Below, in pieces: positions 25,571 through 48,236 of a DNA stretch of 64,000 nucleotides; the first letter of the stretch is position 1, and each line of letters begins with the position of its first letter. This DNA comes from a virus: the IMG/VR virus record IMGVR_UViG_3300029908_000007, positions 1-64,000 of that record; one strand, 5' to 3'. The notes under the pieces are model-generated. The model saw only the letters and a list, made by a program, of their open reading frames with translations. It ran no database searches and had not been told where the DNA came from. Made by a program: the position numbers and the translations under genes.

Positions 25571-25614
25571 ATCTAATAGCATATAATAAAGATTGCGGCT
25601 TGTCAACCACGAAA

Positions 25615-27090: not shown

Positions 27091-27930
27091 TTATTTGAGC
27101 AGGTGGCTAATACTGTTAATGTTTACCTGCCCATTGAGGTAAAACGAATTGATTGCGTCTCTATCGGACTTCTCAAGCTTGGACGGATCCTTCGCCATAA
27201 GAATTTTGTGAATCTCGCTCTTAGTAGGAGTCTTCACTTCAACTGGCGTTTCGCTTTTGGCGATAACGTCAAGGGAAGTAATTGCCTTACCTTGAGGAAC
27301 GGTTTTCTTAGCAAGAGCCGTCAAGAATTCCTTAATCGCTGCCTTTTCAGCTTTTTCAGCTGCAAGTTCGTTTTTAAGAAGTTCGACTTCTGTGTTTTCT
27401 GATTTTTCCATCTGCTCTCCATCTGCTTTGCTGGCGGGCGATTTAGCGCCTGGGGTCTTAGAAGGAGCATCGGCAGACATTTCTCCGCCGCTTTTGTGTC
27501 CTTCAGTACCTAGGTCTTTTGCCTTTTCGTGTTTTTCCATCTCGGCTGGTTTGGCTTCAGTTTTACCCATACACTTTTGAAGACAGCTATGATGAGCGCT
27601 TTGCTCTGCCGGAGACATTGAGCGATACATTTTGTCCATGTGCGCCATGTCTTCTTCGTCATAGTCATGACCCTGTTCATGGCCTTCTTTGGCTTCATGT
27701 TCGGGTTTTTCTTCGTGATGCTCTTCTTTGCCTTCTTCCTTAGCTTCTGGCTTCTCGCCTTCAGCAGGAGCGGCTTCTTTGTGTTCGGGCTTCTCTTCAT
27801 GCTTGTCTTCAGCTGGCTTTTCGCCATCTTCGGACTTCGCAAGAGTTGACTTTTTATTAGCCAATTCAGCAGTAAATGCTAGTTCCACATCGGCTACGAG
27901 TTTTGCAACGGCTTCTGGTGTGTACTTCAT
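27091..27930 (-). CDS. Capsid scaffold-like protein
   Basis: Acidic, His-rich, low-complexity; directly upstream of the capsid gene; multiple KSE motifs. Confidence 0.7.
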   Translation of the reverse strand: MKYTPEAVAKLVADVELAFTAELANKKSTLAKSEDGEKPAEDKHEEKPEHKEAAPAEGEKPEAKEEGKEEHHEEKPEHEAKEGHEQGHDYDEEDMAHMDKMYRSMSPAEQSAHHSCLQKCMGKTEAKPAEMEKHEKAKDLGTEGHKSGGEMSADAPSKTPGAKSPASKADGEQMEKSENTEVELLKNELAAEKAEKAAIKEFLTALAKKTVPQGKAITSLDVIAKSETPVEVKTPTKSEIHKILMAKDPSKLEKSDRDAINSFYLNGQVNINSISHLLK

Positions 27931-27971
27931 ATTTACTCCTTTCATTATTATATTGGTTAAAAAGTCTATAA

Positions 27972-28642: not shown

Positions 28643-29269
28643 ATGAGAGGCCACAATTTATTAGGCAAAACGTTTGGAAAGCTAACAGCAGTAGAAAGAA
28701 TTGTGCGCGAAAATCCCGAAAAGGGGGAGCAAAGAAGTCGATGGCTTTTTAATTGTGAATGCGGGAGTACTAGAATATCCAAAGCAAGTGCTGTGGTTAA
28801 GGGCTTTATTAAAAGTTGTAAAGAATGTACCGCTAAAGAATACAAAAGTGCTCAAGGAGCACGCGGAAGAAATAAGAAATTTGAACCAAAAGAAGCTTCA
28901 TTCAGAGCAAAGGCTTCTAACGTCAAAGCTCACGCTAAAATTAGAAACATCCCATGGGCTTTGACTTTAGAGCAAACTTCCGAAATATTAAAAATGGATT
29001 GTCATTATTGTGGATGTGGGCCCTCCAATCCTTACAATACTTTTAAAAATAGGAGTTGGAAACAGTCTCTTAAATATCCCAAAGAAAATGTTTTGGAGAA
29101 AGGTGAAATATTGTATAACGGTGTTGATAGGTTAGATAGTGATATTGGTTACACACCCGAAAATTCGGTCCCATGTTGTACTTTTTGCAATGTCGCTAAA
29201 AATGATAGACCTGTAGAAGAATTTCTAATTTGGCTGGATAAATTAGTTAAATTTAGGAGCAAAATATGA
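28643..29269 (+). CDS. HNH-type homing endonuclease
   Basis: GKTFGKLTAVER/CECG N-terminal module; CHYCG...NGVDRLDSDIGY...N.VPCCTFCN. Confidence 0.85.
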   Translation: MRGHNLLGKTFGKLTAVERIVRENPEKGEQRSRWLFNCECGSTRISKASAVVKGFIKSCKECTAKEYKSAQGARGRNKKFEPKEASFRAKASNVKAHAKIRNIPWALTLEQTSEILKMDCHYCGCGPSNPYNTFKNRSWKQSLKYPKENVLEKGEILYNGVDRLDSDIGYTPENSVPCCTFCNVAKNDRPVEEFLIWLDKLVKFRSKI

Positions 29270-32108: not shown

Positions 32109-32152
32109 ATTTAGTTGACAAAACAAAAGGTTATGTGATATATTAAGGGTGT

Positions 32153-33160
32153 ATGAGGAAGAATTGGGACTATCCAGACGAAATAATTCAACTAGCCCTG
32201 AAACACGGGAGTATGACGGATTTTATCAAAAATAGCGCCGGAGCATGGCAGGCCGCGAAACGCTTTGGCATAGACAAAAAGATCAAATCTCTTATGCCTG
32301 TAAAAAAGAGAGGCGCTTACACTTACGAAGAATTAAAAGAATTTGCTCTTTCGTGCGGAACTAGAGGAGAATTTAAAAAGAAATCTCCGTCTAAGTATAA
32401 CGCAGCTCGTGATATGGAAATTTTAGACGAAATTTGTTCTCACATGCCTCCTCCAAAAACGGAGGCTTACACGTATGAGGAATTAGAAGCTCTAGTAAAA
32501 ACTTGCTCTTCTAATCAGGAATTTAGAGATAAATATCCTGGGGCCTATACTGTTGCTTGTAGCAGAAAAGTGTTAAAAAAACTGTGTAAAGATTTTCCAG
32601 AAGCTAAAAATAAGAAACATACAAGAGAAGAAGTGGTAGCATTTTTTGGTAAAGATGGATACGAAGTAGTTAGCGAAAAATATGTAAACGCCAACACTCG
32701 TCTAGAAACCATTTGTCCGGCTGGCCACACTTATTTTGTTAGATATGGCGATTTCTATACTGGTTATAGATGCGCCGATTGCGTACTTAATAATGTCTCT
32801 AAAATGGAGTTGGAACTTCTAGAAGCTCTTAGAAAATACGTTCCAGAATTAAAAAGAAAAAAGTTTAAGGTTACCGTTCTGAATAAATCCCATATTAAAG
32901 CTTTTGAAGTTGATATGTATGACTCAGAAAAGAAAATTGGAATTGAATTTGATGGAGAATACTATCATTCTTTTGAGTACATGAGAAGCGATAAAAAGAA
33001 AAAGAAATGGTCCGATGAAGATATTCGAAATTATCATGAAATTAAGGATAGCGCTTTAATGGACTGTCACGGTATTTTGGTATTACACATTAAAGAAGAA
33101 GAGTGGAAAGTCGACAAACAAGCTTGTATCAACAAAGCTTTAAGGTTTCTAGGAGTATAA
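32153..33160 (+). CDS. PD-(D/E)xK/Vsr-like homing endonuclease with N-terminal helical repeats
   Basis: YTYEEL..A...EF...P..Y repeats, CPAGH/CADC, FEVDMY...IGIEFDGEYYH; own TTGACA promoter at 32115. Confidence 0.8.
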   Translation: MRKNWDYPDEIIQLALKHGSMTDFIKNSAGAWQAAKRFGIDKKIKSLMPVKKRGAYTYEELKEFALSCGTRGEFKKKSPSKYNAARDMEILDEICSHMPPPKTEAYTYEELEALVKTCSSNQEFRDKYPGAYTVACSRKVLKKLCKDFPEAKNKKHTREEVVAFFGKDGYEVVSEKYVNANTRLETICPAGHTYFVRYGDFYTGYRCADCVLNNVSKMELELLEALRKYVPELKRKKFKVTVLNKSHIKAFEVDMYDSEKKIGIEFDGEYYHSFEYMRSDKKKKKWSDEDIRNYHEIKDSALMDCHGILVLHIKEEEWKVDKQACINKALRFLGV

Positions 33161-34016: not shown

Positions 34017-35243
34017 ATGTCCTTGCTTAAGCATCTCCGCAAAGCTCTTACCGAAGAGTACTCGCTGAAGAAAGCTGAGGATCCCGTTGCCTACGCTAAG
34101 ACCGCTTCCACTGGTTTCATTCTTGCTCACCCTGTAAAGATCAACGGCGAAAGTCACAGAAAAGATAATGGTATCGATTACCATTCCACTGTAAAATTCT
34201 TCGATAAAGAAAAAGACAACCACGACGACGCCCACAAAACCGCTTCCCAATTAGACCTCACCCCACCCGATCCCAAAGAAACCCATATCGGCACCAATGT
34301 GATTAAAGATCGCATGGGTAACGACGTATACGCGATAACTTTGCATGGCAAGCACGCCGACAAGCTCAAAGAGAATCATAAAAAGTTCGATCACATGGGT
34401 CACAAAGAAAACTATGACTGGAACGCCCACATCAGTGTGCCTAAAGCCGTACACGATGAAATCAAAGCCAGCGGCCATAAGACCGCGCATGAAGCCGGAA
34501 TTGAATTCGGGCCAGCACAGCTGAAGCGTGGCAAAGAAGTTATTCATACTTATAAATTAAAAGAGCCGATGAAAAAGTCCGAAGGCGACGCTCCCTCAAC
34601 CGTCAAGCCTCCTGTCAAAATCAATCCCGAACACGGTAAGGCCATAGCAGATGCCTACGAGGGTATGAAACACGAGCCCAATAGCCCACACGTCAAAGCC
34701 GCCTACGATGCTTTGACCAACGAGACCGGCAAACAATTCAAAGACATCATGGGATCCGGACTTAAGATCTCGCAAATCAAACCCGGTCAAGCCAATCCCT
34801 ACAAAAGTTCCAAAGAAATGCATAACGACATCAAGAATAACAAACATCTGTGGTACTTCCCAACCGAACAGGGCTTTGGTAGTGGTGGGCAAGCTTCGGA
34901 CCACCCAATGTTGGGCCCCAGCGGTTTCAAACACGACGGCAAGTCTTTGGTACACAACGACATCTTTAGAATCGTTCACGACATCAACGGCCATCACGCC
35001 GGTGGAGAAACCGGATTTGGGCCAACCGGGGAGCACCAAGCCTATCTCACCCATAAGAAAATGTATAGCCCTCTAGCGGGAAAAGCATTGGCTACAGAAA
35101 CTATGGGACAAAATAATTGGGTGAATTTTGGTCCTCACGGAGAAAACAATAGAAAAAATCCAGCCCAGACAAAGTTTGCGGATCAAAAAGCGGGATTGTT
35201 ACCAGAACACATTACCAATGGAGACTGGCACAATGCATCATAA
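34017..35243 (+). CDS. Two-domain protein: Acb1-like 2H phosphodiesterase plus HDxxGH (zincin-like) domain
   Basis: YHSTV (H56) and AHISV (H138) 2H motifs; after MKKSE, NDIFRIVHDINGH...GEHQAY...TETMGQN. Confidence 0.7.
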   Translation: MSLLKHLRKALTEEYSLKKAEDPVAYAKTASTGFILAHPVKINGESHRKDNGIDYHSTVKFFDKEKDNHDDAHKTASQLDLTPPDPKETHIGTNVIKDRMGNDVYAITLHGKHADKLKENHKKFDHMGHKENYDWNAHISVPKAVHDEIKASGHKTAHEAGIEFGPAQLKRGKEVIHTYKLKEPMKKSEGDAPSTVKPPVKINPEHGKAIADAYEGMKHEPNSPHVKAAYDALTNETGKQFKDIMGSGLKISQIKPGQANPYKSSKEMHNDIKNNKHLWYFPTEQGFGSGGQASDHPMLGPSGFKHDGKSLVHNDIFRIVHDINGHHAGGETGFGPTGEHQAYLTHKKMYSPLAGKALATETMGQNNWVNFGPHGENNRKNPAQTKFADQKAGLLPEHITNGDWHNAS

Positions 35244-36426
35244 TCAGTGGAAGAAAGAATTTGAAGATTCCGTGGAACCATCTTTACGTAAAGCCGAAGA
35301 TCTCCATCTAGTCCACTATTCCCCCCAAGCCGGTCTCAAATACATCGACCCAAAGTTCAGCGGAACCGGCGTCGACAGCAGAACCAAAGGCCGCAGCACC
35401 GAACACCCACACTCCTTCTATTATAGGCATGGAACCGAACCCGAAGAAGTGGTAACCGGTAGAGCTGCTAACAAATACCACGTTAAAATCGGCGCCGACA
35501 AACCCATTTACGATATTGGTAAAGATCCTAAGGGCTTGGTCAGACAAGCCATCGAGGAAAATCAAGGTATTACTAATATGGATACCGTACACTCCAAAAT
35601 CAAAGAACACGGCTTCCATGGATTCCATAATAGCGGGCACCCCAGTCTTTCCAATGTAGTGGCTATGTATCACCCGCAGCCGGTTCAGAACGACAGCATG
35701 CAGAAATCCGAAATCCAACCCCTTCTAAAACCCTGGTCCAGCCAAGCTCAAGCCGCATGGGGTCATTCACCTGAAGGTAAAGCCGCGCTTGGTGGAGAAG
35801 CCGCTGTGAAGGAATGGGATAACGCTACCAAAGGCAAGCATCTGCCAAAGCATGTTAAAAAGAACGAATCCCTCGAAAAAGGCGCACTCAAAAATCTCCT
35901 AACCGCTGGAACCATGGGCGCTGCTTTGGCCTCCGCTGTTCCCTCAGAAGCCCACGCGCCCAATCACGAACCCCTACATCCCCAAGCCGGTGCTCACCCA
36001 ACTACGGGCTACGATCGAAAAAAGATGTTAGACGCTATTTCACAAGTTGAGAGTAGCGGCGGAAAAAATACCGTGCACAAGCCAACCTCCATGGGCCGAG
36101 CATATGGCCGATTTGCCGAAATGCCCGACATGATCCACGACACTATTCGCCTCAACCCCGATCTGAAACGCCAGCATCAAAAAGCCCTAAATCTTCAGGG
36201 TGACGATCTCCACCGTTACATGCAGGACAACCCAAAGTTAGAAGAGCAGATCGCCGATAAACATCTTTCCAGACTCGAACACCATTTCGGCCAGAATCCC
36301 AGCCTAATAGCGTTTTCTTGGAACCAAGGTGTCACAGGTACGAATCGCGCCTTAAATCAAAAACACGACATTTCCTCGCACCCATATGTGCAGAAATTTA
36401 AACACGCCTACGAAGGCAAGGAGTAA
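35233..36426 (+). CDS. Multidomain protein: ART-like domain, small PWSSQAQ module and lytic transglycosylase (SLT/lysozyme-like)
   Basis: GGAG RBS before ATG 35233; LVHYS...SFYY...GFHG; ISQVESSGG...AYG...SWNQG. Confidence 0.65.
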   Translation: MHHNQWKKEFEDSVEPSLRKAEDLHLVHYSPQAGLKYIDPKFSGTGVDSRTKGRSTEHPHSFYYRHGTEPEEVVTGRAANKYHVKIGADKPIYDIGKDPKGLVRQAIEENQGITNMDTVHSKIKEHGFHGFHNSGHPSLSNVVAMYHPQPVQNDSMQKSEIQPLLKPWSSQAQAAWGHSPEGKAALGGEAAVKEWDNATKGKHLPKHVKKNESLEKGALKNLLTAGTMGAALASAVPSEAHAPNHEPLHPQAGAHPTTGYDRKKMLDAISQVESSGGKNTVHKPTSMGRAYGRFAEMPDMIHDTIRLNPDLKRQHQKALNLQGDDLHRYMQDNPKLEEQIADKHLSRLEHHFGQNPSLIAFSWNQGVTGTNRALNQKHDISSHPYVQKFKHAYEGKE

Positions 36427-36428
36427 TT

Positions 36429-36920
36429 ATGTCAATGAATATTCGCCCCGAAGATATTGATACCATTGAAGACGCAGGTATTTTAGATGGACAACCGGTT
36501 AAACTCATCAGAACCCGTGGTGGATTTTGGATGAGCATTATCAACGGCAAAGTCGTTGCAGGCGGATCTCACCCAGCGATCGTTAAGCACAGTGTGTCTA
36601 AGATGTTCCCTAACTTCCAAGCCGCTCTCTGCAAAAGTGAAAACGCTGGCATGGACGCCATCGTTGACAAACACTCACACTTCTTATCTGACGATCTGCG
36701 TAAAAGTGGTCACGACATCTACAGTATCCAAGAAAACGACGCCATCGAATTCCAAGTCACCAAGCACAACATCAAAGTTGCTGGTATTAACGGTTCCATG
36801 GTTGAGGGCTCCCTATCTTTGGAAGCCATCGACTTCCCCGAAGAGTTCAAAAAATCTCTAGCTGCGGCTACAACCGAAAAAGCTCTCTCTGTTAAAGCTA
36901 AAACCATCCGGATCAAATAA
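36429..36920 (+). CDS. Hypothetical head-associated protein
   Basis: AAGGAG RBS; LCKSE motif splits it into two halves. Confidence 0.65.
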   Translation: MSMNIRPEDIDTIEDAGILDGQPVKLIRTRGGFWMSIINGKVVAGGSHPAIVKHSVSKMFPNFQAALCKSENAGMDAIVDKHSHFLSDDLRKSGHDIYSIQENDAIEFQVTKHNIKVAGINGSMVEGSLSLEAIDFPEEFKKSLAAATTEKALSVKAKTIRIK

Positions 36921-36921
36921 T

Positions 36922-37269
36922 ATGTGCGTAGAACTTGTTAAGAGTGAAACCCAAGTCAGTTTTAAACCCGAACTTCCTCTAGAAGAGCAAATCTGTGGAT
37001 GCCAGGAAGCTATTATTGACTGCGAACCCGATTGCCCGAAGGTACTGAAGTTCTTGGCCGAAGTCGAAAAGGCCTGCCAATATGGGAAATCGTTGGGAAT
37101 CAAACTTAGCCTAGTTGATACACACAACTTCGGATTGTTTAAAAAAGTTAAGGATTTAAACCAAGCCATCGCTACTTCTGATATAATACATCAGATAGTT
37201 TTGTTTCACGACAAAGCCGATCGTAGACTAGAAGAGATTGCTAACATGTGTAGGAAACCGAATGAATAA
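36922..37269 (+). CDS. Hypothetical protein
   Basis: Operon packing. Confidence 0.6.
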   Translation: MCVELVKSETQVSFKPELPLEEQICGCQEAIIDCEPDCPKVLKFLAEVEKACQYGKSLGIKLSLVDTHNFGLFKKVKDLNQAIATSDIIHQIVLFHDKADRRLEEIANMCRKPNE

Positions 37270-38254
37270 AAAGCCCGAAGGCGAACAGATCGAAACTATT
37301 TCTTCTGAAGCACCTTATATTCAGGAATCTTTCGATTTAAATCGAATGGACGCTTTTGTAAAGAGTTTAGGTGTTCTCCTAACTCATTGGAAAGCCACGC
37401 CTTCACCAATTGGCTTAAACGATAAAGGCGACTATCGTAGAAATACCGGGCAAGTCGATGTTATGACTAGCAACGGCTATATATATAGTTTGGCAGGACT
37501 ATTCGTTGGTGTTATGACTGGAAACAGCAAAGACCAGCGGCGCCCTGTTGAAGGCGGATTGCTAGACTCAGCGCAGGCCAACCTAATACTACCCAGGTAT
37601 TACGAGCGCAAACAGACCAACGACGTGGCTTGCGGCGAAGACGGCTGTGTTGTTGATACCGATAAAAACGAAAGAATCTATCTCACCCCCGGAGATAGGT
37701 TATACTACGGTGATCCACAAGCCGACGACTTAGTGGTTGGCAAAGAATTGATGAATTTTGAGATCGACAAAGACACCGTTCCCATGTACCCCATTATTAA
37801 GATGGACGCACCTATCGTTGATTCTCGCGGAATTTCATATCAACAGAACATCGATTTCGTCATCACTAATTGCGGCGACATTCGGTGGATAGAAGGAAGG
37901 CCAAATCCGGGTATTGATCCAAGTACTGGAGAAGGCAGGACATTTTCGGCCCGCTACCTTTATAAAGCGTTTTACTACGTCACCTCTATCTTAAGAGAAG
38001 TTAGGATCACCAACACCAGCAAGTTTGGCGAGCCGAGCTGCGACAACCAGGGCCTGAGAAGCGCGGAACGCATGCCGATGTTTGTGCAACTAACCCGTGA
38101 ATACCTCTATCACAACATCAACAAGGGTTCGGAGACCAATAAAGCACCTCAAAAAGGTGCGGAACTCAGACAGACCGTTGAACCCCCTAGTACGGTTCCA
38201 ATACAGACTGGAATTGTTAGGGTAGAAACCACGGACCTCGATTTTGATGAATAA
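37262..38254 (+). CDS. Neck/head-closure-like structural protein
   Basis: Position among neck genes; Y...DF.I...G.I.W...P...FSARY pattern. Confidence 0.5.
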   Translation: MNKKPEGEQIETISSEAPYIQESFDLNRMDAFVKSLGVLLTHWKATPSPIGLNDKGDYRRNTGQVDVMTSNGYIYSLAGLFVGVMTGNSKDQRRPVEGGLLDSAQANLILPRYYERKQTNDVACGEDGCVVDTDKNERIYLTPGDRLYYGDPQADDLVVGKELMNFEIDKDTVPMYPIIKMDAPIVDSRGISYQQNIDFVITNCGDIRWIEGRPNPGIDPSTGEGRTFSARYLYKAFYYVTSILREVRITNTSKFGEPSCDNQGLRSAERMPMFVQLTREYLYHNINKGSETNKAPQKGAELRQTVEPPSTVPIQTGIVRVETTDLDFDE

Positions 38255-38336
38255 TTTAAAAAGCTTAAGGAAATCGGTATCCTGCAGGCTTTAAAATAAA
38301 GCAATGAATCTTTAATTAGTAAAGGAAAACAATAAC

Positions 38337-38807
38337 ATGGCCAACGTTTCAAAGCGCAATATTCCAGGTAATCAAGTTCAGGACCCCTCAGCCATTGGTA
38401 TCTTGACATACTCAGACCAAGCGGGCTCAGTAAAGACATCAGAAGTCGGCAGAAGTCTAGCGCCTCTTGGCGATGGCGCTGGTGGATTTACCACCGATGC
38501 TTCAACGGCGCGTATTTTACCCGGTGCTGGCCAAAATCTTGCCATTTATAATAAAAGCGGAACCGTACAATCGGTTACGGTTAGTTCTAGTGGCTCGACA
38601 ACGGCTTTGTCAATTGGAGCAACCAATGCAGCTGGCAATGTCGGCGTCGCGTGTACTCCTAATTCCTGGACTTACGTTGCTTGTAATCAATCCAACTGGG
38701 TCGTCACGGATTCCTCTAATCTGGTCGTATATTTAATCAATGATTATTCCAGCATCCAAGCCGTGGCACCGGTTTTGGTCAGCCAACCCAACTATCCTCA
38801 GCTCTAA
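38337..38807 (+). CDS. Hypothetical virion protein
   Basis: AATCTTTA motif plus AAGGA RBS. Confidence 0.65.
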   Translation: MANVSKRNIPGNQVQDPSAIGILTYSDQAGSVKTSEVGRSLAPLGDGAGGFTTDASTARILPGAGQNLAIYNKSGTVQSVTVSSSGSTTALSIGATNAAGNVGVACTPNSWTYVACNQSNWVVTDSSNLVVYLINDYSSIQAVAPVLVSQPNYPQL

Positions 38808-38811
38808 TTAG

Positions 38812-39738
38812 ATGAAACCGAACGCCGAGTACTTTCTCAGAAAGACACTTGGAGAAGACCTTAAAGAGTCGTTAGGCGAAGTCCTATCTAAGTCCGAAGT
38901 CTATAAGCAAGGTACTCGTACTATTACCGATACCGACGATCTTTTTCAAGGTCTTCAAATCGTTCCACGAGCACTACTAAGTCTTTTGGTTAGAGAGTTG
39001 TCTCCCATGCAAATCGGAGAAAATAAAGAAATTCGCATTCCAGGAAAAGAAGACACCACGGTTCAGGTTACCAAGCATGAGCGTGATTCCTATAGTGGTC
39101 AAATAATTCAAAACAACGTTAAAATCAACGACTTTATGCACCGCTCATTACCGGGTTTAGGTTTGGTTTTGATGACAATGCTAGAACTATACGACTTCGA
39201 AGATCTCAAAGAAACTCCTTCCGCCGACCACTCCCATATCAACAAGCTCATCGACGAACGCATGCATCTTCACTCCCTCATCAACCAAGTCGTAGATGGC
39301 AAGCTCATGCACCGCGACGCCGTTGAACAGCTTCTCATGACCAAGCTAAATCAGATGGGCACCGAACATAAAGAGATTAAAGAAGAACACAAAGAAATCA
39401 TGAAGCCCGAAGAACCTAAGGCAACAGTGGTTATTAACATCGAAACCGCTAAAAAACGTCGTCCGTTATCGGAATTCGTGGAAAATCGTAAAAAGAAACT
39501 TGCCAAGAAAGAGCATTTTATAGAAATGAAAAAATCCGAAGAAATTTCATGCCCGGATTGCGGGAACGTTATTTTTTCTGAGGGTGCTTACAGCGGCTGT
39601 ATTTGTTTTGGTGATAGCGATAAAAAGCTTTATGTTAAAAAATCTGAAAACGGCTATATGGTGCGCCCTGGTCGTGGGTGGGATGAAGAGAATCTGGAAA
39701 TGCTTTTGGAAGCTTTGAGGGGTAATAAAAATGGGTAG
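38812..39738 (+). CDS. Hypothetical protein with C-terminal zinc finger
   Basis: CPDC...CIC; LSKSE, MKKSE, VKKSE motifs. Confidence 0.7.
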   Translation: MKPNAEYFLRKTLGEDLKESLGEVLSKSEVYKQGTRTITDTDDLFQGLQIVPRALLSLLVRELSPMQIGENKEIRIPGKEDTTVQVTKHERDSYSGQIIQNNVKINDFMHRSLPGLGLVLMTMLELYDFEDLKETPSADHSHINKLIDERMHLHSLINQVVDGKLMHRDAVEQLLMTKLNQMGTEHKEIKEEHKEIMKPEEPKATVVINIETAKKRRPLSEFVENRKKKLAKKEHFIEMKKSEEISCPDCGNVIFSEGAYSGCICFGDSDKKLYVKKSENGYMVRPGRGWDEENLEMLLEALRGNKNG

Positions 39739-40480
39739 CGGCGGCAAGAACAGACTATCCGTTGAAGAAGTTGAGCGGAGGGTTCAACTTGCTCATGGTG
39801 GCATGGTTACAATGGTCGGATCTACCTACAAAGGTATGCTTAAAAAAGCATTGTTCGTCGACAAGGATCATGGGGAATGGTGGACAAAACCGGGTGACGT
39901 AACATTTAAGAAATCGGGCCATCCCTTAAGATCTTTAGAAAAATCAAGAAATACCTTTACGAGTAAATACGGTATTGGTATCATTAATGCCAGTCAAGTA
40001 GAAGAAATAAAAGAAAAAAAGAAAGCAACTACATTCAAAAACCATGGTGTTAAGCATCCTTCTCAGAGTAAGGCGATCAGAGAAAAGGCTCAAAACACGA
40101 CCCTAGAAAGGCATGGGGCTTTATTCCCGTATCAATGTTCAGACATTGCTCTCAAGGCCGCAAAAAAAGTAAACAATCCCAGTACAAAAATTCATTGGAA
40201 AACCGGAGAAGAACTATTTTGTCAAGGCGGATATGAAGCCAAAACTGTTGACTATCTTAATGCCAACCAAATTAACTTCGAATGGCAGCCCAAGACATTC
40301 AAAATGCCTGATGGTAAAACATATCGTCCTGACCTATACCTGTCTGACACAGGCATTTGGGTTGAAATAAAAGGCTGGATGAGAAAAGATGCTGAGTTAA
40401 AGTGGGACTGGCTCAAATCTGAATACCCTAACGCAGAACTTTGGAATCAAAAGAAACTAGAAGAAATGGGGATATTGTAA
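39731..40480 (+). CDS. PD-(D/E)xK homing endonuclease
   Basis: T..K.HGV.HPSQ repeats; YRPDLY...WVEIKG. Confidence 0.8.
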   Translation: MGSGGKNRLSVEEVERRVQLAHGGMVTMVGSTYKGMLKKALFVDKDHGEWWTKPGDVTFKKSGHPLRSLEKSRNTFTSKYGIGIINASQVEEIKEKKKATTFKNHGVKHPSQSKAIREKAQNTTLERHGALFPYQCSDIALKAAKKVNNPSTKIHWKTGEELFCQGGYEAKTVDYLNANQINFEWQPKTFKMPDGKTYRPDLYLSDTGIWVEIKGWMRKDAELKWDWLKSEYPNAELWNQKKLEEMGIL

Positions 40481-42150
40481 TGGATACTAATACGTCCCAG
40501 CACTTAGTCTTCGCCGGAGATGGCGATAACATTGGTCAAAGACACGCTCGGGCCATTTTGTCCGATGACATCGCTCAAGTAAGAGAAGTTTCGGAACATA
40601 TCACCGAAGGAAATAATTTTGTAAGAGACTTTGTTGAATCCCATGGGGGCGAATGGATTAGTGGCGGCGGCGACGAATTCTCATTTATGGCTCCTCCTGA
40701 GTTTGTGGAGCTTCTCGATCAGCTCCGAAAAGATTATGAATATATAGTTCAAGCCACACTATCCGTTGGATATGGAGATACTATCTCTCAAGCCGGTAAA
40801 GCACTTTTGGTTGCTAAAAGTCGCGGAAAAGATCAAGTCGTACAGTACGAAGATTCGATGGAAGACGAGCTTCAGCGTATCGGTGAAGAAGAAAATTCTC
40901 CCGACGCAGAAGCAAAAAAAATAAAAGGTGTACTTACTAGCGATAACGGCACGCAAGCACAAGAACCTGGAAACGCGCCTCCAGAATCTGACAAGGTATT
41001 GCCAGAAGGATCTGACGCTGCTGTTAACGAACCCACTTCTTGTGAGCCACCAGTTGAAGATAATAATAACGGATATGATTCGGGTTATAAAAATAGCAAT
41101 CCCACCACTAGAAAAGACTCTTATAGAGCCGAGGATATGACTCCTCCTACGATTGCAAAACCTAACCTAAAACAGCAAACGCCGGTCAAAGAAGCGGTTT
41201 CTACCGATATTCAAGAGACCAACCGTCAAATGAATGAAGAACCCGCCAATCCAGATGAAGAGGCTCCTATGATTGAAAAACCAGCACCAAAAGCATACCA
41301 TGGACAAGCTGAGGGCGACGAAGAAGTCCCACAAAGCAATGTTCCACAAAGTGAGGCTCAGCCTAGAGATAACGATAAACCCGGTGATCTTAAATATGGA
41401 CCCGGCGAAGGCGAACAGATTCAGCCCGAAGCCGATGTTCCCGTTGAAAACGCTACCACAGATGAAGCCGAAGCCACTGAAGACCAGGACATGGAAACCA
41501 AACATTGTGAGAGCTGTACTTGCGCAGATCACAAAGACGCAGAAACTACTTTGGACGAACACGTTGACAATGCTCAGGATTTTGAAAATACCTTAGATGA
41601 CGGCCAACCTGAAGGCGCGGAAGAAACTTTAGACCAGCACATCGATAATGCCACCGATATGCAAGATAACATGGATCAAGATGGAATTAGTCGTCCCGAA
41701 GACTATGACGATAAACGCGAAGACATGGGACTTAGCGAAGAAGACTCCGGCGAACCCGACCTAGACGGCGTTCTTCGCGATGGACTTGATGAGCACGCAG
41801 AAAATATCCAGAAAGAAAAAGTTGTCAACATGGTTGGAGAAGCCCTGGAAGGATTCAAGAGTCAGAAAGCAATTCTCGATAAAGCGAAGGAACAAGCGCC
41901 AGAATTGTACGCAAGTTGCATTTCCATGTTACGCGCTATGATCGAACTCTGCTCATTGGCTGGAATCAACGATGGTGAAGCCGAACAAGAAGTTAATGAA
42001 ATCGAAGGTCAGAGTACTGCTCCAGAAGAAACTCCTGGAGAAGAGGGTACGCCAGCTGAAGCCCCTGCTGAAAGCGCATGTCCTAGTTGTGGAAAACCTC
42101 ACGATGAAGCGGCTCCCCAGGAGGGGCCGCCTGGAGCCCCACAGCAGTAA
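40480..42150 (+). CDS. mCpol (minimal CRISPR polymerase/GGDEF-like nucleotide cyclase) domain fused to a long acidic region
   Basis: FAGDGDNIG...GGEWISGGGDEF...TLSVGYG...AGKALLVAKSRGK in the first ~120 aa; TAATG coupling to the upstream gene. Confidence 0.85.
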   Translation: MDTNTSQHLVFAGDGDNIGQRHARAILSDDIAQVREVSEHITEGNNFVRDFVESHGGEWISGGGDEFSFMAPPEFVELLDQLRKDYEYIVQATLSVGYGDTISQAGKALLVAKSRGKDQVVQYEDSMEDELQRIGEEENSPDAEAKKIKGVLTSDNGTQAQEPGNAPPESDKVLPEGSDAAVNEPTSCEPPVEDNNNGYDSGYKNSNPTTRKDSYRAEDMTPPTIAKPNLKQQTPVKEAVSTDIQETNRQMNEEPANPDEEAPMIEKPAPKAYHGQAEGDEEVPQSNVPQSEAQPRDNDKPGDLKYGPGEGEQIQPEADVPVENATTDEAEATEDQDMETKHCESCTCADHKDAETTLDEHVDNAQDFENTLDDGQPEGAEETLDQHIDNATDMQDNMDQDGISRPEDYDDKREDMGLSEEDSGEPDLDGVLRDGLDEHAENIQKEKVVNMVGEALEGFKSQKAILDKAKEQAPELYASCISMLRAMIELCSLAGINDGEAEQEVNEIEGQSTAPEETPGEEGTPAEAPAESACPSCGKPHDEAAPQEGPPGAPQQ

Positions 42151-42364
42151 GCCCGAAGCTCAGGCCGAGGGCGCCGTAGGATCGGTTAAGAAATTGCCGA
42201 CTAAACATTCTACACCACATATTCCCAAAGAGACCACTCCGGTTGGAGGCGTCAATGCTAAAGGCCAGAAACGCTATATCGATCCCTCTACGGGAAAAGA
42301 TGCTTACATCGACATGAAAACCCCTAGAGTTAAGGGACCAAGAGGTCTTCCCGTAAAAGGCTAG
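42104..42364 (+). CDS. Small basic protein overlapping the end of the mCpol gene (start uncertain)
   Basis: Fills the gap to 42366; +1 frame relative to 40480..42150; weak RBS. Confidence 0.5.
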   Translation: MKRLPRRGRLEPHSSKPEAQAEGAVGSVKKLPTKHSTPHIPKETTPVGGVNAKGQKRYIDPSTGKDAYIDMKTPRVKGPRGLPVKG

Positions 42365-42365
42365 C

Positions 42366-43214
42366 ATGCTAAAATTCAATATTGACCCCAAAGATATATT
42401 GGCTGCATGTAAGGATTCCCAAGAAGAGGTTAAAAAAGCCTTAACTAAAGGTGTAAAAGATCTCGCAGTTGCGGCTCAAGGACATATTGTCGAACTTGCT
42501 AAAGGCGAACTGAGTCCGGCTTTGTTTAAGATCTTTAAGGGTGACCAAAAAGAACCCACACTTCGCATAGATACTATTGACGCCAATACCCATGTTATAA
42601 CCTTATCGGGCTCTGCTTACTGGATTGAAGAAGGCATTGAGCCGGGCAGTGATATGAAAACGGACAAGTGGCTTTTTAAATCTAAAAAGACCAGAACTTC
42701 TAAAGAAGGTTACCGCTATTTATTTGTACCATTTGAACATTCAGCACCTCCTAGCACCCAGACCGGCTATGAAAAAGGCCTAACCGACCGCGTTAAGTTC
42801 GAACTCAAGGCTAAAAACAAACAACGTAAACAGAATGGCCTATCTCAGATTCCTTGGATGGGGATAGAAAGAGATGAGCATGGTAAACCCAAAGAGGGTT
42901 TGATCCATGAATTTGATTTCAAAGGCACCAAAGCAAAAGATAGTTGGACATCTAATCCATTAGAACGTTTGAGGGTCTATCAAGCCGTTGAAAGAGATAA
43001 AGAAGGAAAAGCTAAGCTCACTAAAGGCGGCAAAGAAAAAGTAACCCGATCGTGGATGACGTTCCGTACTGCTTCCGAAAATCCAAAAAGTAAAGATAAG
43101 TTTATACACCCCGGTTATACCGGCAACAAGTTTATGGATAAAACTAAAGAATGGGCTGAAACCGAATTCTACGGCAAAATCCTACCTGACATTTTTGCGA
43201 AGTGGAAGGACTAA
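42366..43214 (+). CDS. Neck/tail-completion protein (HK97 gp10-like)
   Basis: AYWIEEG...DMK...RYLFVPF...FRT.S...FIHPG. Confidence 0.6.
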   Translation: MLKFNIDPKDILAACKDSQEEVKKALTKGVKDLAVAAQGHIVELAKGELSPALFKIFKGDQKEPTLRIDTIDANTHVITLSGSAYWIEEGIEPGSDMKTDKWLFKSKKTRTSKEGYRYLFVPFEHSAPPSTQTGYEKGLTDRVKFELKAKNKQRKQNGLSQIPWMGIERDEHGKPKEGLIHEFDFKGTKAKDSWTSNPLERLRVYQAVERDKEGKAKLTKGGKEKVTRSWMTFRTASENPKSKDKFIHPGYTGNKFMDKTKEWAETEFYGKILPDIFAKWKD

Positions 43215-43215
43215 T

Positions 43216-44229
43216 ATGGGTGGAATATTTCAAACCGACGCACTGCTTAAGACCATACTTGAAGAATCTCTGCAGGATGTTAAGAATAATCTGTGGCTTG
43301 TCGAATACATATTAGAAGATTTCACTCAAAACAAGTTCTTGCGCACAAAATTTGGACAAAAGCAAATCGCTGCTGCCAAAGAATTCTTTTTAAATAACAA
43401 TGTCAATGTTCAGTTACAGTTCTCCAAAGATAAAGAGAAATTCCCAGCTATCTTCTTAACGATGGGCAGTAGTAATGAATTTCAAGAAAATCGCACCATG
43501 GGCGACGTTGGAGAAAGAAATATCATTTTACAGCCGTCACAGGTTGGTTTAAAAATACCTTATGTGGTACCACCCTTTATTCCCACAAGTTTTGATGTCG
43601 CCACAGGAACTATCGGGGTCCCTGAAGGAATTGATCTCATGCCAGTTTCTCCAGGCATGGTCGTACTGAATCCTGAAAATGGTAACGGCTACCCAGTAAT
43701 CAGTATTAACGGTCAAAGTATTATGGTTCAAGCCGGGATCGAATTAGACGCGTCCCAACTCGGGGTTGTTCCTCAATATCGTTATTTCCAATCCCGTCTG
43801 GGACGTTCATTCTTCGAAGAAACCTGGGCCATGACTATTGCAACGAATGATCCTCAGACGTTGCTTTGGCTTCATAGTTTGGTAGTTTACACACTTCTCA
43901 GATATCGTGAGTTTTTTGAACACAATGGCTTTTTGGAAACCAAACTGAATAGTACCGACATTTTTACTCCCGAGTTTAGCAATGCCGGTGGCGAAGAAAT
44001 CTACTGTAGACAAGTTACCATGAGCGGTCGCGTAGTCCAGAGCTGGATTCGTGGTCTTCATAAGAAAATCGAATCCGTTCTTATTAGAGATATTAATCCT
44101 GCCGCTGTTACTTTAGCCGATCCTTCAGGCTATGTCGGCGGCATACGCATCGTTAGTAACCTAACAACTCCTCCTCTTCAACAGAATGATACGACCTATT
44201 TTACCGAAAATCCGGAAGACGAAGAGTAA
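43216..44229 (+). CDS. Tail terminator/completion-like protein
   Basis: Upstream of the sheath; FPAIFL motif; AAGGA RBS. Confidence 0.5.
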   Translation: MGGIFQTDALLKTILEESLQDVKNNLWLVEYILEDFTQNKFLRTKFGQKQIAAAKEFFLNNNVNVQLQFSKDKEKFPAIFLTMGSSNEFQENRTMGDVGERNIILQPSQVGLKIPYVVPPFIPTSFDVATGTIGVPEGIDLMPVSPGMVVLNPENGNGYPVISINGQSIMVQAGIELDASQLGVVPQYRYFQSRLGRSFFEETWAMTIATNDPQTLLWLHSLVVYTLLRYREFFEHNGFLETKLNSTDIFTPEFSNAGGEEIYCRQVTMSGRVVQSWIRGLHKKIESVLIRDINPAAVTLADPSGYVGGIRIVSNLTTPPLQQNDTTYFTENPEDEE

Positions 44230-44537: not shown

Positions 44538-45224
44538 ATGGCCGAAAACAATAAAACAGTTTCAGCACGCGATGCAATTCTAGCCGTTCTCGCCAAGGCC
44601 AAACAAGTCCTTGAAACTTCCGATCTTGTTAAATCCGAATACAAGACTGAAAATTCCCCTAAGCCCGGCGTTAAGTATGGCAAAATTGAAACCGCTCAAA
44701 AAGCGACCGAACGCGATTATAAAGAATATGAAGTGAAATCAGGTGGTTCCAAGGATTCTACCGGCCCTCGTGTTGCTAAGCAAATTTCTCCAAGTGGTAA
44801 TCCAAAAGAAGAAGCTGAAGGCAACAATAAGCCCGATGGCATGGAACCCCACTACGAGTTTAAAGACAAGGTTGCCGGAGAATTGGCTAAAGAAAAGAAA
44901 GCTTTAGGCAAGGCTGAAAATCCAGATAAAGAGCAAGACGCTGCGCTTGGTGAAAAAGTCGAGAACGACGTCGAAGAACATTTTAAAGAAAATGCAGGCG
45001 CTGAACGACAAGAAGGACATTCTATGGCTAATCCTGAAGATAAGACCGACAAAGCAACAACGATTCCAAGGCTGATTTTGTCGGCTAAACTATCGAAATT
45101 TATGGAATTTCGCCACGCAAAGAAAAAAGCTCAAGAATCCGCCGCCGCCGTAGGATCTCCAGCCGCTTCTGCTCCAGCCCCAAGATCGACCCAGGATAGT
45201 CAACCGGACACAAAGAAGATATAA
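44538..45224 (+). CDS. Charged low-complexity (internal head-like) protein
   Basis: LVKSE, LGKAE motifs; AATCTTTA upstream. Confidence 0.65.
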   Translation: MAENNKTVSARDAILAVLAKAKQVLETSDLVKSEYKTENSPKPGVKYGKIETAQKATERDYKEYEVKSGGSKDSTGPRVAKQISPSGNPKEEAEGNNKPDGMEPHYEFKDKVAGELAKEKKALGKAENPDKEQDAALGEKVENDVEEHFKENAGAERQEGHSMANPEDKTDKATTIPRLILSAKLSKFMEFRHAKKKAQESAAAVGSPAASAPAPRSTQDSQPDTKKI

Positions 45225-45226
45225 TA

Positions 45227-45823
45227 ATGAAAACCTGTTCGAAGTGCGAAATCACAAAAGACCTTGAATGTTTTGGGAAAGCTCCCCAAAACAAAGACGG
45301 TCTTAATGGGCAATGCAAAGAGTGTAGAGCCGCTTATTTACTAGATTATAATGAAAAAAACAAAGAAAAGGTTATGGCGGGTCAAAGAAGATATTATAAA
45401 GAAAACAGGGTAGAGATTATAGAAGAAAAAAAGATCTATCGTGCTTTGAATTTAGAAACTATCAAACCCAAAACCAATGCTAGACTCAGGGCTAGAAGAA
45501 AAAATGATCCTCAATTTAAATTGGCAGCTAATTTAAGAGGACGTCTTAATATGGCTATTAAAAGAGGGTACAAGGCAGGTTCGGCGGTAGATGATTTGGG
45601 ATGTTCTGTAGAATCTTTTAAATCTTATATAGAAGGTCTACTCCAGCCGGGCATGACATGGGCTAACTATAGCCCAAGAGGATGGCATTTGGATCATAAA
45701 GTCCCCTTGGCTAGCTTTGATTTAACAGATAGAGAACAGTTTTTGAAGGCTTGTCATTACACCAATTTACAGCCTTTGTGGGCCGTAGACAATATTAAGA
45801 AAGGTGACAAAATTTATGGCTAA
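45227..45823 (+). CDS. HNH homing endonuclease
   Basis: CSKC...CKEC; GMTWANY..WHLDHKVP...HYTNLQPLWAVDN. Confidence 0.9.
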   Translation: MKTCSKCEITKDLECFGKAPQNKDGLNGQCKECRAAYLLDYNEKNKEKVMAGQRRYYKENRVEIIEEKKIYRALNLETIKPKTNARLRARRKNDPQFKLAANLRGRLNMAIKRGYKAGSAVDDLGCSVESFKSYIEGLLQPGMTWANYSPRGWHLDHKVPLASFDLTDREQFLKACHYTNLQPLWAVDNIKKGDKIYG

Positions 45824-46097: not shown

Positions 46098-48236
46098 ATG
46101 AATCAGCAATTAGTCACTCCAAATGTGTCGACAAACATTCCAGGCACTTATGTTAATTATACCGTACTAAGTCAGCCAATCGGCGTAACTTCCAGCGGTA
46201 TTCTTTTGATCATGGGCGAAGCCGCAGGCGGCCCTAGCTACGAACAAGTCGCGCTTAAAAACAGCGTTTACACACCCGATCAGCTTCAAAAGGTCATCCA
46301 GACCTACACCAGCGGTCAGATCGTCGACGCTTTCCAGGCCATTACCGCTCCTTCTAACGACGCCAACATCTCGGGTACCGCTACCCAAATCTACGTCGTT
46401 AAGACCAACACGGGAACCAAAGCTAATGCGACACTTCCTAGTTCTTATGGAACGCTAACCGATATCAACTGGGGAGTTCTTGGAAATCAAGACCAATATC
46501 AAACTTTAGCTGTTCAAGCCGAAGTCGCTCCCACTGTGACCGGTGGAACCATTCCTTCTTTCAGTGCAACTCCCAACGCTACTTTTACCGTTCGCTTGAA
46601 CGGTGGCGCTGCTATGGTTGCAACGGTTGGATCCGGTCCCTATACTACGGGCGCTCAAGTCGCTGCTTCCATCACCGGGCTCCCATCTGGTATCACCGCT
46701 AGCGGTAACGCTACTTCTATCACTTTAACTGTCACTGCAGACGCTTCTGCTTGGGGTAAAGGTTGGGGTAAGAGCTTCGAGCTTATCGACAGCACTCCAG
46801 GCGATCTGGCAGCTTTAGGTCTTGCTCCTGGTTTGACCGTTTCTTCGGAAGAACCTGAAATCGAACTCCAAGATTCCAATGCTTCTCGCGGTGTCAGCGA
46901 AACCTTAACTGCCAACGCAGCGGTAGCTCTTGCTGTTGGTTATGCTGGAACCACAGCTACTCTCACTATTGCCTTGGTTTCTGGCGTCTATACCTTAACC
47001 ACAACGGTTACCGGCGGCAGCGGTGGAAATCTGAGCATTAACTTAAGCCAGTATTCCACAATCGGCGCTTTGGCGACATTCATTGCAAGTCAAATCGGCT
47101 ACTCCGCCACTGTCATTCCTGCCGCTAATTCTCTTCCTACTTCGGCATTGGACGCGGTTTCTGCAATAGGTATTTGCGCAACTGGCGCTGGAGACGAACC
47201 CGGTCGTATTAAAATGGGACTTTATCAGTTCGAACAAGCGATGGCCACCAGCAAACAGTTGGTTTTCACGCCAATCGCAACCGCAGGGCTTCCCGCTCCT
47301 ATGACCGCCCCCGCTTATCTGACTGGCGGAACCATCGGCGCCACTCTGGCTGCTGATATCGTTAATGTCGTCGACACCCTGGGCGGTGTAAACGTTGACA
47401 TTATCGTTCCATTGTTCTCGCAAAACGCTAGCGCCGATATCATCGCTGGTTTGACGGATCCTGCTTCGACTTATACGATTGCCGCTATCAATGCATTGCT
47501 TAAGAGTCATTGTATTGAGGAAAGCAATCCGAGCCTTAACAGAAACCGTATTTGTATCTTGTCTATGAACAGTACGTTTGCAATTGCCGCAGCCGCCGCT
47601 CAAGGCCTTGCAAGCGCTCTGTGTTCTTTGACCTTCCAGAATGTAACACAGGTTAATAGCCTTGGTGTTATCACTCAGTTCCAACCTTGGTACGCCTCGG
47701 TTGTCGCTGCTGGCATGCAGTTGGGCGGATTTTACAAAGCCATTGTAAACAAATACGCAAACCTGATCAGTATCATCGATCCATCGGACTACGATAGTGG
47801 GTCTCCTGGCGATACCTCAGAAGCTTTGTCTGCTGGTTTGCTTCCTCTATATACCGATATCGGTGGACCTAAATGGGTTAGCGATCAAACAACCTACGGA
47901 ATCGATTCCAACTTTGTGTGGAATTCAATCCAGGCCGTGTACGACGCCAACTTGATCGCAAAAGATCTGAAAGTCAGTTTCACCAATGCTTTTGTTGGTC
48001 AAAGTTTGGCCGACGTTTCCGCAGCATCAGCTTCTGCTTTCTTAACGCAGAAGATGGCTGGCTACATGCAGCTTAAACTGATTGCGCCTAGCAATGGTGC
48101 CCCACTTGGTTTCAACAATGCGAAGATCACAATTGTCGCACCTACAATGACCGTGGCCGTGAACATCTATCTCGCAACGGCGATTTATTTTATTCCAATC
48201 AGCTTCAGTATCTCAGCTGTGGAACAATCGGCTTAA
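46098..48236 (+). CDS. Tail sheath protein
   Basis: IPGTY, IMGEAAGGP, YLTGG, FVGQ motifs; 712 aa; followed by the tube gene. Confidence 0.9.
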   Translation: MNQQLVTPNVSTNIPGTYVNYTVLSQPIGVTSSGILLIMGEAAGGPSYEQVALKNSVYTPDQLQKVIQTYTSGQIVDAFQAITAPSNDANISGTATQIYVVKTNTGTKANATLPSSYGTLTDINWGVLGNQDQYQTLAVQAEVAPTVTGGTIPSFSATPNATFTVRLNGGAAMVATVGSGPYTTGAQVAASITGLPSGITASGNATSITLTVTADASAWGKGWGKSFELIDSTPGDLAALGLAPGLTVSSEEPEIELQDSNASRGVSETLTANAAVALAVGYAGTTATLTIALVSGVYTLTTTVTGGSGGNLSINLSQYSTIGALATFIASQIGYSATVIPAANSLPTSALDAVSAIGICATGAGDEPGRIKMGLYQFEQAMATSKQLVFTPIATAGLPAPMTAPAYLTGGTIGATLAADIVNVVDTLGGVNVDIIVPLFSQNASADIIAGLTDPASTYTIAAINALLKSHCIEESNPSLNRNRICILSMNSTFAIAAAAAQGLASALCSLTFQNVTQVNSLGVITQFQPWYASVVAAGMQLGGFYKAIVNKYANLISIIDPSDYDSGSPGDTSEALSAGLLPLYTDIGGPKWVSDQTTYGIDSNFVWNSIQAVYDANLIAKDLKVSFTNAFVGQSLADVSAASASAFLTQKMAGYMQLKLIAPSNGAPLGFNNAKITIVAPTMTVAVNIYLATAIYFIPISFSISAVEQSA

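Follow-up and report, generated by a model that had tools for sequence, protein, structure and literature searches.

Two enzyme modules, a 2H phosphoesterase domain and a minimal CRISPR polymerase (mCpol) domain, are encoded close to each other in a block of virion genes of an uncultured phage, at positions 34,017-42,150 of the 64,000-nucleotide stretch analysed here (the window). The window is the first 64 kb of IMG/VR virus record IMGVR_UViG_3300029908_000007, a 162,308-bp genome (98% complete) of a myovirus distantly related to Myxococcus phage Mx1, and the positions in question belong to a conserved virion-gene block encoding both structural proteins and enzymes. The reading that we favour, and hold to be evenly poised between right and wrong, is that the two modules are independent of each other. 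The 2H domain would be one interchangeable module of a polyvalent cargo set split over two genes, with the 2H domain and a domain of unknown fold in the first and an ART-like domain, a small module and an SLT transglycosylase in the second; these modules would probably be packed in the phage head, cut apart at a motif of the type [LM]xK[AGS]E and delivered together with the DNA. The mCpol domain, a probably active cyclase, would form the N-terminus of a separate, older carrier protein that otherwise consists of an acidic linker and a helical anchor. Both enzymes would most likely tamper with host cyclic-oligonucleotide immune signalling, the 2H enzyme by cutting and mCpol by making nucleotides, and they would share the block by descent and not as an obligate two-part system. 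The segments concerned are:

34017-34601 (+), 2H phosphoesterase domain, residues 1-195 of gene 34017-35243
34602-35243 (+), residues 196-408 of that gene, a strongly conserved domain of unknown fold with an invariant HDxxGH...GE...H pattern; phrog_3170
35233-36426 (+), second cargo gene, with a possible ART-like domain (about 35233-35712), a small module and an SLT lytic transglycosylase (match at 36169-36366)
40480-40890 (+), mCpol domain, residues 1-137 of the carrier protein; PF18182, NF033576 and Protein Data Bank (PDB) matches
40891-42150 (+), remainder of the carrier (about 420 residues), an acidic, proline-rich linker with CxxC knuckles and a conserved helical C-terminal segment

The 2H and mCpol genes are co-oriented in the late virion block, as the initial annotation described, and 5.2 kb lie between the end of the former and the start of the latter. 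That annotation's assignment of the mCpol domain is borne out by several databases. Residues 1-137 match the Pfam family mCpol PF18182 with E 6.4e-16 and 59.2 bits (cut-off 26.4), the NCBIfam model NF033576 with 41.5 bits (cut-off 40) and the PADLOC model CARF_HEPN_mCpol, and they also match solved Panoptes mCpol chains (9nwn with E 1.5e-5, 9mnr with E 6.2e-5). The gene extends from 40480 to 42150 on the plus strand; the ATG at 40480 and not the listed TTG at 40441 is taken as the true start because 17 homologues begin there. Both the metal-binding GDGD motif and the GGGDEF loop are intact, residues D14, D16, G63, G64, D65 and E66 are invariant in the 17 homologues down to 33% identity, and the catalytic motifs are likewise kept in five further orthologues. 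A search for shorter relatives of the domain found only two, one of them of 130 residues and 49% identical. Structure prediction yields a homodimer with an ipSAE of 0.52 (best control 0.00), at least 96% of the contacts agreeing between runs and a partner pLDDT of at least 87. Of proteins solved as pairs of one chain, 20 of 30 reach the ipSAE mark used here, compared with 1 of 23 among those solved as single chains; the pass of the mCpol model may reflect memory of the solved mCpol entries. Judging by its intact motifs, the phage mCpol is very probably a working dimeric nucleotide cyclase.

Studies of mCpol have so far dealt with it only as the synthase that bacteria use in Panoptes, a guard system able to sense when a phage interferes with cyclic-nucleotide signalling, and the Panoptes papers retrieved by full-text literature searches contain no mention of a phage-encoded mCpol. 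With the Panoptes synthase OptS (PF18182; 9mnr, 9pd0, 9nwn; types I and II: PMC12657218, PMC12657230, PMC13577387) the phage domain shares the Cas10-palm-like architecture of about 125 residues, the metal-binding aspartates and the GGDEF-like loop, although the phage protein has the canonical GGGDEF where OptS has AADG. By analogy with OptS, a likeness to which the predicted homodimer may add, constitutive synthesis of cyclic di- or tri-adenylate would be expected. Unlike the bacterial OptS, this mCpol comes from a phage; it forms one polypeptide with an acidic carrier of about 420 residues, lies in a virion block and has no 2TM-beta or CARF-TM effector beside it.

Since mCpol is known so far from Panoptes alone, one could imagine that the phage uses its own Panoptes-like guard, or a toxin-antitoxin pair of mCpol and an effector, for the exclusion of competitors. 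We regard this as scarcely credible. The adjacent effector that defines Panoptes was not found; in its place stand conserved virion-module genes that have orthologues in Mx1 and no match to defence families, and PADLOC finds nothing in the surroundings besides the mCpol domain itself. Moreover, a search of the whole 162-kb genome for Cap15/2TM-beta-type and SAVED domains found nothing, though its controls were silent too and the outcome shows little. A genome-wide search with Phage_gp49_66, a family taken to cover Acb2, was likewise empty with silent controls.

The first 195 residues of gene 34017-35243 are a 2H phosphoesterase. Neither the gene as a whole in Pfam nor the domain in Pfam, NCBIfam or PADLOC has a match, and the assignment comes from motifs and structure. 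A HMMER search seeded with residues 1-195 retrieves 83 cluster representatives, the longest protein having 1668 residues. In an alignment of 50 of them the histidines of the two catalytic HxT/S motifs, YHSTV (H56) and AHISV (H138), are the only invariant residues. Searched against the PDB, a profile of the domain gives weak matches exclusively to 2H proteins (LigT-like 2fyh and 1vdx, Acb1 7t26, YjcG). The AlphaFold2 model (pLDDT 91.9) agrees, as 2H enzymes occupy all of the first 50 rows of the VIA structure comparison and the first 30 rows of Foldseek.

The initial annotation had called this enzyme Acb1-like. The 2H fold and the catalytic histidines of that label stand; a specific kinship with Acb1 is not established. 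The VIA Z scores are 9.3 for plant CPDase, 9.2 for rotavirus VP3 and 9.0 for LigT against 7.3 for both Acb1 7t26 and the phosphodiesterase of Burkholderia phage BCSR5, and the profile match to Acb1 7t26 is marginal (E 0.098 over 50 residues). LigT, plant CPDase and VP3 are thus at least as near to the domain as Acb1 is, the differences in Z being small and leaving the 2H clades unseparated. With Acb1 and other viral 2H phosphodiesterases (7t26, 7t27, 9q2g; Doherty et al., 10.1101/2025.08.21.671373) it has in common the fold, the two HxT/S motifs, the phage origin and a core of about 165 residues, whereas here the 2H domain is a module of a late multidomain protein and not a small stand-alone gene.

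As far as the model can tell, chemistry at RNA ends would be as compatible with the fold as the cleavage of cyclic nucleotides. The enzyme could accordingly act on RNA, as a Usb1-like RNase or on the 2',3'-cyclic phosphate ends that anticodon nucleases or toxins of the host leave behind, and have no connection to mCpol. The best structural matches do include Usb1, LigT, YjcG and plant CPDase with Z scores equal to or above that of Acb1, RNase activity is one of the two roles considered likely for the 2H domains of polyvalent proteins (Iyer et al. 2017, PMC5512222), and relatives fuse the 2H domain to NUDIX and VTC/triphosphate-tunnel domains, which act on RNA ends as well. We nevertheless hold an RNA role to be unlikely, for Pfam and PHROG scans show no RNA ligase partner in the block, those 2H enzymes of viruses that have been characterised to date cut immune oligonucleotides, and the structure scores do not separate the 2H subfamilies.

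The favoured reading of the 2H domain as an exchangeable cargo module draws on the company that it keeps. The remainder of its gene, residues 196-408, is among the best conserved segments of the block. It has 313 relatives, the best 120 of which are mostly 55-80% identical over the domain, and it occurs alone or fused to SLT, GNAT, VTC, ParB or NUDIX domains, moving among multidomain proteins of phages. Its AlphaFold2 model is confident (pLDDT 93.9, pTM 0.90). No match comes from Pfam, NCBIfam or PADLOC, and comparison with the PDB gives nothing usable (Foldseek E of 1.1 or higher; best VIA Z 2.6 over 48,161 chains). As modelled, it may be a new fold that is widespread in phage cargo proteins. 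Kinship with minimal zincins was considered on account of weak VIA rows with Z 2.0-2.6 and was dismissed, such values not being evidence.

The second cargo gene was said in the initial annotation to contribute ART-like and transglycosylase domains between the two enzymes. The transglycosylase is retained with a weak match (Pfam SLT E 3.9e-4, below the cut-off), its homologues carrying PF01464. The ART-like label fares less well. For the first 160 residues (35233-35712) it comes from Atlas leads only, namely ART-PolyVal (features score 0.90; TM 0.58), RES (0.53) and PARP (0.50), with a model pLDDT of 0.65; Pfam, including ART-PolyVal PF18760, gives no match to this segment even at E 1, and BLASTP finds no similarity to the ART region of Mx1's polyvalent protein.

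How these domains are combined varies from phage to phage. Among sister phages the 2H domain may be followed by SLT in the same frame, preceded by the unknown domain, or placed between an ART-like domain and SLT, and the large proteins of the 2H family that reach 1668 residues have GNAT, NUDIX or VTC domains. At the same position Mx1 encodes a 1479-residue protein with GNAT, ART-PolyVal and NUDIX domains recognised by Pfam, and with SLT-like and ParB-like stretches seen by eye in the translation. Unrelated enzymatic domains in one polypeptide, shuffled among relatives, are the pattern described for polyvalent proteins (Iyer et al. 2017), and the shared repertoire of 2H, ART, SLT, NUDIX, GNAT and ParB domains strung together among morphogenesis genes extends the likeness (PMC5512222). 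Unlike the polyvalent proteins of that study, the set is split here over two genes and punctuated by a protease-like motif. In that work the 2H domains of polyvalent proteins were proposed to degrade host signalling nucleotides and the GGDEF domains to make interfering ones. The cyclase of the present phage belongs to the mCpol type, a type not mentioned in that paper, and resides on its own carrier outside the polyvalent chain. An exception to this separation is the metagenomic homologue P0141 (661 residues), in which mCpol and a domain like the ART-like N-terminus of 35233-36426 form one polypeptide; it ties the cyclase directly to the polyvalent domain pool.

The notion that the cargo is packaged derives from a short motif. 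LKKAE (at residue 17) and MKKSE (at residue 185) bracket the 2H domain, LRKAE, MQKSE and LEKGA lie between the segments of the second cargo gene, and the sites in the cargo genes thus fall at domain boundaries. In the predicted proteome a strict form of the motif, [LM][KRQE]K[AGS][EA], occurs 14 times where 2.4 are expected from composition, and a loose form, [LMIF]xK[ASGTH]E, 32 times where 13 are expected. The loose sites concentrate in six proteins, which hold 19 of the 32: six in the protease-scaffold-like protein 50277-52130, five in an acidic scaffold-like protein beside the head protein and two each in two module proteins and the two cargo genes. One further loose site lies in the N-terminus of the portal protein. 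The loose-motif scan thereby singles out:

27091-27945 (-), 50277-52130 (+), 56589-58448 (-), 38812-39738 (+), 44538-45224 (+) and 34017-36426 (+), head-module and cargo proteins rich in the loose motif

The [LM]xK[AGS]E-type motif therefore looks like a candidate cutting site of a prohead protease. The distribution is as expected of such a site, which would suggest that the cargo is packaged in the head and processed. In phage T4 the internal proteins IPI-III and Alt, enzymes or anti-defence proteins made late in infection, travel inside the head, where the prohead protease trims them at a short motif whose last residue is Glu, and are injected together with the DNA. The proteins discussed here have no sequence relationship to them, and it is the enrichment of the motif from which we infer a similar cleavage and packaging.

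How did the two enzymes come to lie in the same block? Pattern scans of IMG/VR with alignments of the mCpol domain, the carrier and the 2H domain retrieved about 25 distinct contigs. For mCpol an alignment was needed, as a single protein gave nothing; for 2H the seed was an alignment of 20 rows, one of 50 rows being too diverse. All but one contig share the gene order fibre-like gene, 2H cargo gene, five module genes, carrier, two module genes, sheath, and the same order is found in part in Mx1. The 2H and mCpol domains occur together in 16 related loci from 14 distinct contigs, all of which belong to one syntenic clade. Several genomes have one domain without the other. A complete (100%) relative of 166 kb has the 2H-SLT gene, a carrier whose N-terminal domain is not mCpol and no mCpol elsewhere in its genome; a 153-kb phage that falls outside the syntenic group carries the 2H domain but lacks mCpol; and in a 121-kb record (74% complete) an intact-looking mCpol is present without 2H. 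The 2H domain is also missing from Mx1, where the carrier orthologue in the syntenic position (hhalign probability 98%, E 8e-14) keeps the fold but no longer has the first aspartate or the D-E pair of the GGDEF loop. In a maximum-likelihood tree of a neighbouring core protein, Mx1 and the record with mCpol only form the outgroup, on long branches that make their placement unsure; the 2H domain is confined to an ingroup of 19 rows (support 100/99), and the genome with 2H only is nested among those with both domains (95/90). In the simplest history compatible with these sequences, the mCpol carrier would be old, 2H would have been gained once at a later time, and mCpol would have been lost at least once.

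[quoted passage not shown] The premise is sound, as Acb1 triggers Panoptes by degrading 2'3'-c-di-AMP, and Acb1-type phosphodiesterases and sponges do so by depleting mCpol products (PMC12657230; bioRxiv 10.1101/2025.08.21.671373). The phage mCpol resembles OptS and has kept its catalytic motifs, the two domains occur together in the 16 loci, and Mx1, the sole relative with a dead mCpol, also lacks 2H. Nevertheless, the association traces to a single 2H gain in a lineage that already had mCpol. Since it amounts to one event followed by inheritance, it provides no statistical support for coupling, and with genomes discordant in both directions each module persists without the other. In addition, the 2H enzyme is not specifically Acb1-like, and a promiscuous 2H enzyme would destroy the decoy too. 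A different way for phages to get past Panoptes has been published, namely a substrate-selective 2H enzyme that spares 2'3'-c-di-AMP (10.1101/2025.08.21.671373). A combined destroyer and decoy-maker is possible but, as a coupled system, unsupported, and we consider it very unlikely.

If the two modules are taken as independent, as we prefer, several points still weigh against the roles assigned to them. 2H enzymes also act on RNA ends, and the one described here is not nearer to Acb1 than to RNA-processing members. Packaging and cleavage are suggested by motifs and gene position. Delivery is less well supported for mCpol than for 2H because the carrier of this phage is without protease-like motifs. 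The mCpol domain diverges about as fast as the structural genes next to it, an unusual behaviour for an accessory counter-defence gene. Finally, the Mx1 carrier has kept its fold without the catalytic residues, which argues that the carrier has some role independent of catalysis.

Taken together with the fixed position of the carrier between conserved module genes in every relative, these properties of the carrier could mean that its main task lies in the structure or assembly of the head-to-tail region, and that the cyclase, if active, serves the phage's own late signalling, for instance in timing or in the exclusion of other phages. The carrier is conserved over about 400 residues among close relatives, its helical C-terminal segment (residues 405-515, 41692-42024) is recognisable in distant relatives and in Mx1, and one lineage has replaced the mCpol domain yet kept the carrier. 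What makes this alternative distinctly unlikely in our view is the strict conservation of the metal-binding aspartates and the GGDE residues in the 17 sequences and the five further orthologues, which argues for selection on catalysis; that the genome yielded neither a sensor nor an effector for such a signal is a weaker point, the controls of that search having been silent. The linker and the C-terminal part of the carrier have no family match.

Among related loci the carrier takes several forms. In some distant orthologues protease-like motifs flank the mCpol domain on either side, and orthologues of several relatives (L039:15750-17132; L035, L041, L042, L043) contain repeated CPYC-type knuckles and LHK[AS]E motifs. 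In loci L039 and L040 a basic, low-complexity N-terminus stands in place of the mCpol domain.

Nucleotide cyclases seem to recur in this phage group. In Mx1 a further protein, of 243 residues, has a GGDEF domain that is intact (OR576727 17173-17904; Pfam 38.4 bits), and the 121-kb relative with mCpol and without 2H also has a GGDEF protein (G002:C1:47066-47428). In the 162-kb genome no GGDEF domain was found by a search whose controls worked. Replacement of a lost mCpol by a stand-alone GGDEF protein was considered and is not general: Mx1 fits, the complete genome that lacks mCpol has no GGDEF domain, and a relative with an intact-looking mCpol has one as well.

What would the two enzymes, each on its own account, mean for the contest between phages and their hosts? 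If an active mCpol is indeed kept across a clade of large phages, phages would write immune-type nucleotides besides erasing or sequestering them. A more far-reaching version, in which the phage mCpol keeps supplying the Panoptes 'all-clear' nucleotide, or a ligand that competes at CBASS or type III effectors, and co-delivered 2H removes the activating signals, is a long shot to which we attach little belief; such a forged host safety signal, if true, would add a third layer to the arms race that is fought over cyclic nucleotides. The pairing with 2H is the less solid part, as the pattern of gains and losses points to each enzyme on its own. Mx1, which offers a cultured relative although with a degenerate mCpol orthologue, resists the Myxococcus CBASS and type III-B CRISPR island that stops phage Mx4 (PMC11506125). 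This resistance fits a clade well equipped against nucleotide signalling and proves nothing about the genes discussed here.

Between the cargo genes and the sheath gene lie further members of the block:

36429-36920, 36922-37269, 37238-38254, 38337-38807 and 38812-39738 (+), five conserved module genes with syntenic orthologues in related IMG/VR loci, two of the five also in Mx1
39731-40480 (+), inserted homing-endonuclease-like gene directly upstream of mCpol; DUF7487 E 7e-13, endonuclease PHROGs
42104-42364 (+), small conserved basic open reading frame with ATG at 42104, overlapping the 3' end of the mCpol gene
42366-43214 and 43195-44229 (+), two conserved module genes between the carrier and sheath genes, with orthologues in nearly all related loci and in Mx1; phrog_16819 and phrog_1000

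The five module genes have no informative match in Pfam, PHROG, NCBIfam or PADLOC. The homing-endonuclease-like gene is absent from, or positioned elsewhere in, most relatives. The part of the small open reading frame that extends beyond the mCpol stop is 42-59% identical in 13 loci, and with respect to the carrier gene it is read in frame +1, 0 or -1 depending on the relative. A programmed frameshift that extends the carrier is disfavoured by this variation and by the presence of an ATG of its own, so that 42104-42364 is probably a separate small gene.

The relatives of the phage form a clade of 150-177 kb genomes with a conserved, co-oriented virion block, distantly related to Mx1 (169.6 kb). 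Mx1 is the closest cultured phage and the sole cultured match for the sheath protein, with 39% identity. Searches against 50,697 phage records found no match, either for the 8-kb stretch by megablast or for the mCpol and 2H domains by tblastn. Virion genes near the stretch, which likewise include portal and large terminase genes, are:

25676-27061 (-), major head protein
46098-48236, tail sheath

Scans for promoters and terminators gave site numbers no higher than in shuffled sequence. At 32115-32144 (+), a few nucleotides upstream of the HNH gene at 32153, one sigma-70-like promoter comes near to consensus, matching it at 11 of 12 positions and having an extended -10 TG. The structural region is interspersed with six genes of the homing-endonuclease or HNH-like kind (24173-25606 on the minus strand, 28643-29269, 32153-33160, 39731-40480, 45227-45823 and 48876-50210). 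Adjoining the head genes, the phage encodes a GroEL-like chaperonin of its own (22376-24142 on the minus strand; phrog_5725, E 7e-75).

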